A DNA stretch of 64,000 nucleotides from a virus (Duplodnaviria > Heunggongvirae > Uroviricota > Caudoviricetes). The notes under the pieces were generated by a model. That model made no database searches, was not told where the DNA came from, and worked only from the letters and a program-made list of their open reading frames with translations. Positions 13,926-18,561 of this stretch are shown here, piece after piece (position 1 is the stretch's first letter; the number at the start of each line of letters is the position of its first letter). The position numbers were made by a program, and so were the translations under genes. The stretch covers positions 86,479 to 150,478 of IMG/VR virus record IMGVR_UViG_3300021400_000025; one strand, given 5' to 3'.

Positions 13926-15509
13926 ATGAAGAACGAACTTGATTGCATATTGAAGAACGAGATTCTGGAGGGATGCATGGATTCCCTGTTGGAATTCTCC
14001 GAATCTGGCGATGGCTCTGCGGTGAAGGTGTATGGTAAGATTGCGGGATTGCCTTGCATTGGCAGGACATATTTCACCACGCAGAAGGAGTTGGATGTGA
14101 CGAACGAGGATGCCCAGACATAGATGATGCAGAAATATGGGGCGGAGACCTATGGCTCCTCTGCGCAATTGAGGCAATAGAGCGCAGATAGATAGAAGGG
14201 GACAGGAACTGAGACGGGGATTGGGTCTGTCGTGGACAGCAAAGACTCCTTGATAGATTGCTCGTTCAAGCCATTGATGAAGCTTCCTGTGAAGTTCCGC
14301 GAATCCATCTGGGGTGGGAATCCAGGCAAGGATTTTCAGGACAAGTGGCAGAAACTGGTTGAGTTGATACAGGGGAAAAGCAAAGACGAAAACTGGGCGA
14401 AGAGCAACCCCAAGATGAAGGAATTGGTTGGGAAGAGGTTTTCGCCTGGTTCTGGGGTTGATAGTCTGGACAACACCAAGCCGTGGAGCGAAGTGCAGAC
14501 CATATTCAACGACAAGGATGTCCAGGCGATGTTGAATCGGGAAAAAGATTTGAACAAGAAGTGGACTGAAGTCCGCAATGCGTGGAATGAGTGGAGTGAA
14601 TCTTCGGGTGGTGGCTCATCTGGCTCTTCTTCTGGTGGAAAGGGAGGTGGTTCTGATTCATCGAAATCGGGTTCTTCTGAATGGGATCCCAGATAGACAT
14701 ACAGGATAGACATCACCACGAAATTCGACAAGAACTGGTTTCAGCGAAAGTTCAAGAGTGGCATGCTCAACAAGATGATAATGGGTTTGAAGACGATGGC
14801 CATGGCGAATCTGGCAAGCGACAGCAAGAACGATAAGAAGGGTTACAAGTACACCGGAAACGAGATGCTTTCCCAGGACGAGCGGAAATTGGACAAAATC
14901 CAGTGGAATATGACGAACAAGGTGGCGAAGGACTACATCACTTATCTTCTTGGGTGGAGCAGAAAGAAGGAGTATTACATGGACGGTTCCCAGCCCAAGG
15001 CTGCATCCACTGCGGATCTTCGAGTTGATGCTGGCGTGGGGAAGAAGTTCGCAGACAAGGCGTTGAGCAATAGAGGCATATTGGGAAGGTTGAGATAGAA
15101 GCTGTTTTCTGGTGGTCAGTCCAACAATGTGGTTTCTGTGGCGTTTCAGTTGGCTGATTGGCGCGATGGATGGAAACTGGTGGAGGAGGATAAGAAGAAG
15201 GGTGGTGAGGAAGGATCTTCTGGTAGGGAGGATGGCGGAAAAGAGGGAGGTGGCTCTGCTGGCTCCGGTGGAAAAGATGGTGGTTCGTCTGGCTCAGGAT
15301 CAACTGGAGTGGGTGGAGGTGGATCGTCTGGGGCTGCAGGCTTGGGCGAGAAGGACATGGACAGTCTAATGACGCTTCTTCAACGGGTCAGGAATGTGGA
15401 GAAGGAGGTATATGGAAAGCAGATGGATGAATCCACATCCAAGGACAACAATGTGGACGGACTTGTGGATGAAGTTCTAATGGCGTACATAGGAGAGAGC
15501 AATGGCTAA
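13926..15509 (+). CDS. composite recoded ORF of about 527 codons with 5 in-frame TAGs (14121, 14178, 14193, 14694, 15096). Gly/Ser-rich linkers. Ends at TAA
   Basis: Track ORFs 13926..14123, 14232..14696, 14763..15098 and 15129..15509 are all in frame 0. Only TAG codons lie between them (verified). A TGA at 13917 closes the frame upstream. Confidence 0.5.
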
Positions 15510-18500
15510 AAGCGAAACCACAGAGCGCACAGGATATGTGTGCGTCCTCAAGGACTTGGACATGCTCCTGCCAGACGAATTGGTGAAGGAGTTCAAGGGG
15601 TTGTTCTATCAAGAGGATGGACATCCACAGGACGAGGCGTGGAGGATGTTCTGCTCCCGTAGTGGTCAGAGTGAAAGGACGCCAGAATCGTTCTTCGCCA
15701 GATTTGGAGTTGATTGGAACAACCTCAGAGTGCGTGATGCTGTCGCCATGGATTTGATCAAATTGGACGATGGAACTGTGTCCAACGACTATTTCTGCAC
15801 GGTGAAGGAGCAGGTGAAGTATTCCCCGAACGAAATGCAGAGATTCCTCCTCAACAAGAACTTCCGCGTGAATCTGGTGAATCTGGAGAGGGAGTGGAGC
15901 AACATATCATACACGATCAAGGACGGTGGAGACGAAGATGGCCGCATTCAGAAGCTGAAGAGGAATGTGGAGAGGATGCATCAGGGGATTAGGATGTCCA
16001 ATGCCTTTTTGGAGATGTTCAATCAAGTGTTCAAGTTGGGGTTTGATGAATCACATAAGCCAATTCGGGACTTCAACGAGCAGGACATATACATTCCATT
16101 CACCAACGCCAATGATTTCCACCAAGAGGTCGCTCTGATACCAAACACCCATCCTGACTTCAAGGCGGTCACTTCAAGGGCGTATTATGACTTGAAGCAT
16201 AGACAGTATGTGAAGAGGCTGAGGGCGCATGGCATTCATGCCGTGGCGTCATTCGCTTTGATAGACAAGGACTTGGACAAGAGCCATAATGGTGATGTCC
16301 TCGTGAAGATTCAACGCAAGGTTGGCGATGGCACATGGCAGTACATAGTGGCGAAGGTGGATTCGGATGGACAGTTGAAGCCAGTCGATGGAAATGGCGG
16401 CACTTTGTTCAGAAGATGGACTTCCAACAAGAACGAGATTCTGTCGGTGTGCGAACAGGACTTTCTTCCCAGAAAAACCAATGTGGTGGTCTCCAGAGAA
16501 TGGCAACCAGTGGTCAGGGAGGTTCCTGTGGCGAAATCCACGACATCCTCCCATTGGTCTGTGTTCATGCAGCGAATCCCCAATCATGACTTCAAGAATG
16601 TGCGCAACTATGTCCAGTTCAAGACTCGTTTGAAGGGGATGGAGTTGTGCCTTGTCCAGCTAAAGAGGGATGTATATGGAAAGGAGGTTCAATGCTCCGA
16701 GTGCTTCAACAAGATGACAATCAGTCTGTGGAGGATGATGCAGGAGTTGGTTGGGAACAAAGAACGATTGGCGTTGGTTGAGGAATGGTACAGGCTCGTG
16801 GCTGAATATGACGAGTTGTTCATGAAGCGCACAAGGTTGGTGGATTTGATTTCCACCAAGAAAGTGGAATTGGATGAATTGCTTGAACAATACAACAAAT
16901 TGGGTCCGAAGCAGATGGACGAGAAGTTTCAGCTTGGGGCGAAGATTAAGTCAATGCGGTTGGAGATTGACAAGAACCATTCCACCATGTTGGAGTCCTT
17001 GAAGGGCAGATTGGAGGAAATCGAGAGGAGGGTGGATGCCATCAAGGAGAAGATGGATGAAGACGATGGGCAGCAGTCCCCACCAGAGATTATATGGGAT
17101 TCAGAAGAATGGGAGAGGCGGAAGCAGCAGGTGATTGACCAGCGGCAAGATGCGCCAACACCCCCAGACCCAAGCGAATATAGGCAAGATGTGGATGCAT
17201 CCAAGCAGCAGTCCCAACAGCATGTGCAGGACACGGCGTCATCCCAGCATGCAGACCCAACCATGTATCCCAGAGCTGGAATGGATGGGAAGTTGAAGGA
17301 ATTGGATTTCAACGCGAACGCCACCAAGAGATTGCGCCGTCTCGTCAGAATAGTGGAGAGATGGAGGGGCTACATGTTCAATCTGGGCTATGAACTTTCC
17401 CAGATGAAGCAGATGCTTGTGAAGTGCGAGGACGCGACAATCAAGGTCAAAAGATTGCTGCGGAACTTCGAGGACAAGATTCGCACGACCCAGAAGCAGG
17501 TGTGGAACAAGAAGCATCAATTGAGAAAGAACTTCGATTTCAAGGGGGTGGCTCTTGCGGGAATCCACGACATAATCCTTCTCCATGATTGGTATGCCGC
17601 CAATGCAGGCAACAACACATTCTCCGACATGGGCTTCAAGGACGAGGACGAGTTCATGGAGTTCAGAAGAAGATGCAACAAAATCTCCTACAATCTGAGG
17701 AAGAACCAGTACATGCAGATGCTTCAAATCAGAAAGACATAGTTGGAGGACAGCATCTCCGAAGCCAGAATTGCGCGTGGGCAGAAGGGGGATTTGAAGT
17801 GGCATGACAAGTATGGGCGGGATGGGCAGACTGATGCCTCGGACGATCAATGGAATGTCAAGAATGCATCCAAGGACAGCATGAGAAGGATTGCCGAGAT
17901 TGTCCAGGTGGAGGAATAGATTGCGGAAAGGTTGAACGAGAACGCCCGCGCCCGGAAGACATATGCCAAAGACTTGGAGATGCTTGAGTCCAGAACAATG
18001 GATTACCTCAAGGACATTGGATTGGCGAACAATGTCCAGGACTTGGAGGGTCTTGTGGTTCGGGGAAGGGCGTTGCGATCTGAGGTGGATGTTCCATCGG
18101 AAATCGCCAAGTTGGAGTCCTTGAAGAATAGATTGGACGATTCCAAGGAGTTGATGTTCAAGCAGAGGGATTCGCTCAAGGGAATATTGGAATCGGTGGA
18201 GAAGATGGAGGGGGAGATTGAGAGATTGCACGATGAAAACACCAACATCCTCAACCAATGCATGTCGTTGAAGGGAAAGAGGAAGCAACGAAACAATCTG
18301 CTGTTGAGGAAGCTGGAGAACGAGCGTAGAATTCAGGACTTGAACCATGACATCAAGAAGTACAAGTCCAGGCATTTGGATGATTTGTCCTCGTTGGAGA
18401 GGATGCGCGAGGAGGTTGATTCCTGCCAGATGGAATATGACAACGCGGTGGAGGCTTTCAAGCGCGACATAGGGTTCAACAAGGACGACATAGCCAACTT

Positions 18501-18561
18501 GATGGTTGGAATCTACAACAATTTCCAGGACGAAATCCTGGATCATGACAGCAAAAAATGA
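15502..18561 (+). CDS. composite recoded ORF of about 1019 codons with 2 in-frame TAGs (17740, 17917). Coiled-coil-rich, probably a virion or assembly protein
   Basis: Track ORFs 15502..17742 and 17932..18561 share a frame. The 190-nt gap between them is open except for the two TAGs (verified codon by codon). Ends at TGA. Confidence 0.5.

Follow-up and report, generated by a model that had tools for sequence, protein, structure and literature searches.

Two genes of a very large rumen phage that are interrupted only by TAG are best read with TAG as glutamine

Introduction

The question raised by a 64,000-nt stretch of phage DNA, positions 86,479 to 150,478 of the IMG/VR record IMGVR_UViG_3300021400_000025 (hereafter the window), is whether the six open reading frames (ORFs) called between positions 13926 and 18561 are separate small genes, or rather the pieces of two longer genes, A (13926..15509) and B (15502..18561), in which TAG is a sense codon. 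A preliminary description made from the sequence alone favored the second possibility, and considered A and B as late genes, which share this recoding with others in the window. The analysis presented below makes it highly probable that A and B are single genes for proteins of 527 and 1,019 amino acids (aa), respectively, in which TAG is used as a codon for glutamine (genetic code 15) by way of a putative Gln-charged suppressor tRNA.

The source of the window is an uncultivated phage of ~418 kb from the sheep rumen. The same sequence is also present in a 418,130-bp contig (ENA ERZ1756080 NODE_700), in a 416,990-bp scaffold, and in NCBI AUXO01 contigs, which derive from a sheep-rumen metagenome (Shi et al. 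2014; PMC4158751). The window has a phage-type content, which includes a T4-type RNA ligase, an NAD-dependent DNA ligase, a TET-associated glycosyltransferase, DNA methylases, an S-adenosylmethionine lyase, and a TnsA-like protein, and nearly all of its genes are located on one strand. The GenBank phage collection contained neither a DNA nor a protein match to it in searches using blastn and tblastn.

Results and Discussion

Genes A and B are broken only by TAG

The frame of gene A (+ strand, 527 codons) contains TAGs at 14121, 14178, 14193, 14694, and 15096, has no other internal stop triplet, and ends in TAA at 15507. Gene B (+ strand, 1,019 codons) has in-frame TAGs at 17740 and 17917, likewise with no other internal stop, and ends in TGA at 18559. 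Hence, the six fragments called with code 11 (13926-14123, 14232-14696, 14763-15098, 15129-15509, 15502-17742, and 17932-18561) make up two frames broken by five and two TAGs, respectively, both of which end in a non-TAG stop, exactly as the preliminary description gave them in coordinates and codon counts. When the expected counts were calculated from how often stops occur off-frame in this DNA, 20 in-frame TAA or TGA triplets were expected in gene A and 36 in gene B versus none observed (P(0) = 1.3e-9 and 1.2e-16, respectively), so the TAG-only pattern is not explained by chance. As TAG constituted 13-15% of the off-frame stop triplets, the probability that all in-frame stops would be TAG was 7e-5 for gene A and 0.018 for gene B. 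The codon-usage coding score was positive in the same frame on both sides of each TAG, and negative in the other two frames. The comparison of Shine-Dalgarno sequences between the true starts and the pseudo-starts of the fragments did not discriminate between them. The region from 13926 to 20668 was found with 100% identity in three further assemblies of this phage, which shows that the TAG codons are not assembly artifacts.

Homologs continue through the TAG codons

Related sequences were compared at ten loci from other metagenomes (L004, L006-L008, and L013-L018), which include IMG/VR contigs of 414 and 434 kb. The relatives of gene A, which are 520-580 aa long, run across all five TAGs. The sequences matching gene B were its own 746-aa fragment from this phage and full-length relatives of 984-1,063 aa, which cover 96-99% of the read-through protein and stay in register across both TAGs. 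In L004, a 234,944-bp relative, A and B are adjacent uninterrupted ORFs of 567 and 1,063 aa, and the gene order, in which these two ORFs are followed by a TnsA-like gene and a 497-aa ORF, matches that of the window. Distinct homologs of the fragments, ending at the TAG positions, were also looked for, because their existence would speak for separate genes; the homologs that were found instead continue through the TAGs as single proteins.

A closer view of gene A is provided by L006, a 1,400-bp contig from another sample with 92% nucleotide identity to the window. At all three comparable sites the two sequences differ by a single C/T change between TAG and CAG, and the exchange goes in both directions, with the window TAGs 14694 and 15096 being CAG in L006, and an L006 TAG being CAG at window position 14370. 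The ratios of nonsynonymous to synonymous substitution rates (dN/dS) between the window and L006 were 0.17, 0.24, and 0.25 in three TAG-bounded segments of gene A, which indicates that each of these segments is under purifying selection in this frame. All ten loci have in-frame TAGs among their orthologs of A, B, and C, the last being a gene located downstream from B. The TAG positions in these orthologs mostly differ between relatives, even at 92% nucleotide identity, and their number ranges from 0 to 9 per gene, with nine in one B ortholog. Hence, TAG and CAG appear to interchange rapidly between relatives. An IMG/VR scan with gene B alone detected no relative, and the scan with gene C detected six.

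Glutamine is the most frequent residue opposite TAG

Among the TAG codons of gene A, that of residue 391 (15096..15098) is located inside the near-invariant motif RGILGRL(R/K)QKLFSGGQ, and it is aligned with Gln in 36 of 37 homologs, and with a CAG codon in L006. Residue 66 (14121..14123) is opposite Gln in 13 of 20 homologs, while L008 has a TAG in the same column, and residue 85 (14178..14180) is opposite Gln in 8 of the 11 homologs aligned there. The codon of residue 257 (14694..14696) is CAG, that is Gln, in L006, and residue 90 (14193..14195) belongs to a variable linker, where the aligned residues T, S, A, and Q are uninformative. In the TAG columns of gene A and its relatives taken together, Gln accounted for 84 of 200 opposite residues, versus a background of 4.2%. 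When the alignments of A, B, and C were combined, giving 50 TAG columns from 11 loci, Gln was again the commonest partner (70 of 364, versus a 4-5% background), and it was followed by Glu, Ser, and Lys, which have codons one mutation away from TAG. The 15 TAGs of a giant gene located upstream of A are at poorly conserved positions (31% identity to L007), and gave no information on the amino acid. As judged from these comparisons of sequences, TAG is shown to be a sense codon, best assigned as Gln, in a defined subset of genes across the clade. The Gln residues opposite TAG at conserved columns and the TAG/CAG exchanges with L006 bear out the proposal of the preliminary description that the fragments belong to two genes read through TAG, in which the same recoding operates.

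TAG codons are present in a subset of genes

The TAG content was counted in four recoded genes, which are A, B, C, and the giant gene (2024..11590, + strand), the last of which has 3,188 codons with 15 in-frame TAGs, no other internal stop, and a TGA end. Together they have 23 TAGs in 5,257 codons, which constitutes 3-22% of their Gln-type codons. On the other hand, there were no TAGs in the 7,305 codons of 26 other well-defined genes, involved in DNA/RNA metabolism and other functions (P = 1e-14 if the rates were equal). Recoded genes are terminated by TGA or TAA. As regards a possible enrichment of the recoding in late, structural, or lysis genes, C has a baseplate-hub fold, and a fiber-like gene at 62015..63778 with leucine-rich repeats (LRR) probably has a sense TAG, but A, B, and the giant gene have no assignable function, and TAGs are also present in two glycosyltransferase-like ORFs located outside the window.

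The role of TAG as a terminator was compared in all 92 code-11 ORFs of the window; TGA is the stop of 61 of them, TAA of 13, and TAG of 18. In 15 cases the apparent TAG end lies inside a recoded gene (14 cases in the giant gene, A, and B, and one, at 20597, in gene C), and the TAG at 63722 is probably internal as well. The other two belong to small, ambiguous ORFs; read-through of 54010..54276 would extend it by 48 Arg-rich codons into the next gene, and that of 55854..56150 by only three codons. Because the recoding is sparse, gene calling with code 11 loses only 1.8% of the window.

The rarity of TAG is related to the composition of this DNA. With a GC content of 45-47%, it shows a strong depletion of the TA dinucleotide, the odds of which are 0.40 in the window (in all 4-kb blocks) and 0.44-0.56 in the relatives. 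As a result, TAG and TAA are both rare, and TGA is the dominant stop; the + strand of the window (1-64000) contains 1,775 TGA, 250 TAA, and 230 TAG triplets. The most under-represented tetramers are the palindromes CTAG, GGCC, GATC, ACGT, and TCGA. The in-frame TAGs are never preceded by C, which agrees with the strong avoidance of CTAG.

Gene C has a baseplate-hub fold and a TAG near its end

Gene C (19097..20668, + strand) is annotated as a protein of 500 aa ending at TAG 20597. The frame continues, however, for 22 codons to the TGA at 20666, which gives a gene of 523 codons, in which TAG 20597 is a sense codon. The tail MVERIQLVKPFEIAPIPQVLRK is kept in nearly all full-length homologs, and Gln is the most frequent residue at the TAG column within the close subfamily. 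L004 has its own TAG in gene C, and in the other aligned loci this column is Q in 6 of 8 and L in 2 of 8.

In the structural model of gene C the predicted local distance difference test (pLDDT) score is ~75 over residues 1-260, while the C-terminal half has low confidence. The comparison of the N-terminal ~250 residues to PDB using Foldseek gave 1k28_D (T4 gp27) with E = 1.2e-5 and a probability of 1.0. All 14 matches at E <= 1e-3 were hubs or VgrGs, among them contractile-injection-system hubs and the center of the phiKZ baseplate, with TM-scores of only 0.27-0.36. The N-terminal part thus resembles the T4 gp27/VgrG baseplate hub in its fold, in which tandem beta-barrels are separated by an alpha/beta domain. 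It differs from it in having no sequence-level family match, because Pfam and PHROG gave no match at E <= 0.01, and so gene C is not a sequence member of the hub families (Phage_GPD, Phage_base_V, or the PHROG baseplate hub), and also in the low confidence of its C-terminal half. On the basis of this fold, the block includes at least one recoded gene that encodes a baseplate protein in the tail of a contractile-tailed phage.

The functions of A and B are less clear, as neither had a Pfam, PHROG, or PDB family match, directly or via homologs. The product of gene A contains linkers rich in Gly and Ser, and its conserved core covers residues ~255-420. When residues 1-746 of B were modeled using AlphaFold2 (pLDDT 68), the result was an alpha/beta domain at residues ~130-320 with long coiled coils after it, and fold searches with this model returned generic coiled-coil matches only. 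Since B is long and helical, and is located directly upstream of the hub gene C, with only the conserved TnsA-like gene in between, one could guess that it is a tape-measure-like protein, a guess that no match supports. The search of A and B against profiles of virion protein families, which had been suggested in the preliminary description, returned no match. The late or virion label that it had given them is shown only for the neighboring gene C with its baseplate-hub fold, and not for A and B themselves, which have no recognizable family or fold.

Decoding of TAG and points against a proposed Gln suppressor

In phages with the established form of this recoding, TAG is decoded by a phage tRNA(CUA) charged by glutaminyl-tRNA synthetase (GlnRS), sometimes together with release factor 2 (RF2), and the TAG-containing late genes can be translated only once early genes in the standard code have been expressed (bioRxiv 10.1101/2021.08.26.457843). 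Genes of RF2 and GlnRS are optional accessories in the published clades. The insertion of Gln at TAG has been shown in phages by metaproteomics (PMC9523058), and in the phage studied here Gln is the residue best assigned to TAG from alignments. If the same mechanism operated here, a Gln-charged suppressor tRNA with the CUA anticodon, most likely encoded elsewhere in the phage genome, would decode TAG, possibly helped by the loss or out-competition of release factor 1 (RF1) activity. Without this suppressor, only the first 65 residues of A and the first 746 of B would be made. Full-length A and B would be made only once the suppressor became active, which would tie them and the baseplate-hub gene to the late phase, while the TAG-free genes of DNA and RNA ligases, methylases, and glycosyltransferases could be translated by the unmodified host.

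Several observations weigh against this interpretation. The search for tRNAs using ARAGORN and Rfam, including permissive thresholds, detected no tRNA(CUA) in the window, in 8 kb upstream and 9.7 kb downstream of it (82 kb of ~418 kb in total), or in ~190 kb of the relatives' loci. The precomputed annotations of window positions -7,976 to 73,724 contained no Pfam family of RF2 or GlnRS, and neither was found in the relatives' loci. Gene B residue 747 (17740..17742) is spanned by homologs in register, which have Arg (12 of 16) or Lys (3 of 16) rather than Gln at this position. Several other TAGs, such as that of gene B residue 806 (17917..17919) in a variable stretch, are at variable positions, which are uninformative about the amino acid. 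Finally, the late timing would be deduced from one neighboring structural gene. An IMG/VR pattern scan for a CUA anticodon loop together with a T-arm also gave, among the matches listed, none with the composition of this clade. The only tRNA found was tRNA-Arg(TCT) at 23184-23259, which is 75-89 nt long in different relatives, and is located directly upstream of an SF0329-family gene in all relatives covering the region. Such a negative result has precedents, as published surveys also miss the suppressor in a large fraction of recoded genomes; Borges et al. (bioRxiv 10.1101/2021.08.26.457843) found TAG suppressor tRNAs in only ~40% of the phage genomes with TAG recoding.

Other explanations of the TAG codons

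Two explanations deny that TAG is translated. According to one of them, the standard code applies, and the fragments are separate small genes with TAG as a true stop, which is how the public gene calls present them (proteins of 65, 139/154, 111, 126/80, 746, and 193/209 aa). There is hardly any chance that this is correct, because homologs cross each TAG as single proteins, the DNA from each TAG to the next start codon is conserved as protein, and the fragment boundaries differ in each relative; the crossing homologs, together with the TAG/CAG exchanges in the close relative L006, led us to reject it. The other explanation, that A and B are decaying pseudogenes, or that the TAGs are errors of assembly or sequencing, has nothing in its favor but the presence of stop codons, and appears extremely improbable. 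The stops are only TAG and never TAA or TGA, there are no frameshifts, and dN/dS remains at ~0.2 after the TAGs. The sequence is identical in four assemblies, and the same pattern is found in ten of ten relatives from various metagenome assemblies. We consider that these data refute it.

Other explanations agree that TAG is translated, and differ in how. The rumen is inhabited by pyrrolysine-using methanogens, and Lys is among the residues opposite TAG, which could suggest that TAG is read as pyrrolysine in a host that decodes it. This is scarcely credible, however, as the conserved columns contain Gln, the exchanges with the close relative are with CAG, the phage has bacterial-type genes (a sigma-70-like factor and an NAD-dependent ligase), and the 82 kb examined showed no pyl genes. 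Alternatively, TAG could be read through without a dedicated Gln suppressor, if RF1 were inactivated or out-competed, and near-cognate host tRNAs (Gln, Lys, Tyr, or Trp) or a host suppressor inserted a residue that would perhaps not always be Gln. The lack of a suppressor tRNA in the region examined, its presence in only a minority of TAG-recoded genomes (Borges et al.), and the Arg or Lys opposite B residue 747 are all consistent with this possibility. On the other hand, the tRNA search covered 82 kb of a ~418-kb genome, the conserved columns point clearly to Gln, and a protein with 15 TAGs would need efficient decoding, such as near-cognate reading would rarely give. Hence, we regard read-through of this kind as quite unlikely, and the decoding of TAG as Gln by a suppressor tRNA as the preferred explanation.

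Comparison with known code 15 phages

The recoding of TAG to Gln is already known, and what is described here is its presence in a previously unannotated lineage of very large rumen phages with medium GC content and depleted TA. Code 15 has been reported in crAss-like phages, Lak megaphages, and the Garnet, Amethyst, Agate, Topaz, and Sapphire clades (bioRxiv 10.1101/2021.08.26.457843; PMC9523058; PMC6784885). The phage studied here is similar to them in that TAG is opposite Gln in homologs, the recoded genes end in TGA or TAA, and the recoding is concentrated in part of the genes, one of which is a virion gene, with DNA/RNA-metabolism genes still readable in the standard code. The recoded genes belong to several modules spread along a very large genome, which is also the case in Lak, Agate, and Jade phages. 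In contrast to code 15 phages known before, the GC content is 45-47% and TA is depleted, while the published evolutionary path invokes low GC (bioRxiv 10.1101/2021.08.26.457843). Further differences are that TGA is by far the main terminator, that no suppressor tRNA or RF2 was seen in 82 kb of this phage, that the lineage has no match in the GenBank phage collection, and that the recoding is sparse, with a 1.8% loss compared to the 10% coding-density criterion used in a survey of jumbo phages (PMC13037316). These differences are of degree and not of kind.

The same survey noted TAG recoding in jumbo phages of the rumen and gut, with the suppressor tRNA absent from a fraction of genomes (PMC13037316). 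The lineage studied here shares with them the rumen habitat, a genome above 200 kb, and TAG recoding in hallmark genes, but the sparse recoding of its ~415-435-kb genomes would probably miss the detection threshold. The lineage thus adds very large rumen phages of medium GC content to the TAG-to-Gln recoders, and it shows that recoding can be too sparse for coding-density criteria (1.8% of the window). It has also a practical consequence, as the public calls split at least five genes of the window into ~25 fragments, and remove the conserved C terminus of the baseplate hub. Calling genes again with code 15 restores the proteins of 527, 1,019, 523, and 3,188 aa, and the gene calls for the clade should be redone. 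The presence of TAG-free enzyme genes beside TAG-bearing virion genes fits the idea that recoding serves as a timing switch, without being a test of it.

A more speculative possibility is that this 415-435-kb lineage arrived at TAG-to-Gln recoding by a route other than low GC, in which TA avoidance made TAG rare and TGA a near-universal stop, with the recoding being sparse, in rapid flux, and independent of a canonical phage suppressor tRNA. The decoder could then be, for example, a host tRNA, interference with RF1, or a non-canonical tRNA. We consider such a route rather doubtful, but if it were true, sparse recoding of this type would escape the coding-density screens that are used to census alternative codes.

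Other genes in the window and its surroundings

The gene between B and C, at 18568..19071 (+ strand), is standard-coded, and is found between them in all relatives. It encodes a protein with a TnsA-like endonuclease fold, which also matches phrog_218 'head closure.' A 640-aa antisense ORF (17239..19161, minus strand), which covers the end of B, the TnsA-like gene, and the start of C, was considered and rejected as a Leu/Val-rich shadow ORF, which is open because the sense frame has almost no TTA, CTA, or TCA. Long shadow ORFs of this kind are also present in the relatives.

Further TAG codons are located near both ends of the window. The gene that runs off the window start (1..1952, minus strand; L010 7392..9929) has 846 codons with one in-frame TAG at 1745..1743, and its product has a Gly-zipper-like N terminus and an acidic Gly/Ser-rich linker. 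The fiber-like protein encoded at 62015..63778 (+ strand) has GITVSVTT-type repeats and a BspA-type LRR C terminus, and its TAG at 63722 is followed by 17 codons and a TGA. This TAG is probably a sense codon, as the extension resembles an LRR cap. The relatives retain the N-terminal part of this protein, and swap its C-terminal domain. Three more TAG-joined ORFs are located beyond the right end of the window, at L009 13706-19730, which corresponds to positions 65720-71744 in window numbering. These are a Peptidase_C92-like ORF, a glycosyltransferase (Gly_transf_sug), and one with two TAGs and no assigned family. A Glyco_transf_11 ORF in L009 ends in TAG, with 16 further codons before a TGA.

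The region 37512-43645 is probably a DNA-modification cluster. It includes genes of a PP-loop/QueC-like ATPase (37512..38558), the TET-associated glycosyltransferase (41374..42246), and an N6/N4 DNA methylase (42251..43645), all of which are TAG-free. Within it, in a ~1.4-kb gap without plus-strand genes, the minus strand contains a 160-aa ORF (39722-40204) with a Pfam match to OrfB_IS605 (TnpB), which may be a remnant of an IS605/IS200-family element within the phage genome. The sigma-70-like gene, which has weak Pfam matches to regions r2 and r4, is located at L010 4758-5540, ~2.4-3.2 kb upstream of window position 1 and hence a few kilobases upstream of the TAG-bearing gene block, and it could encode a phage late sigma factor.

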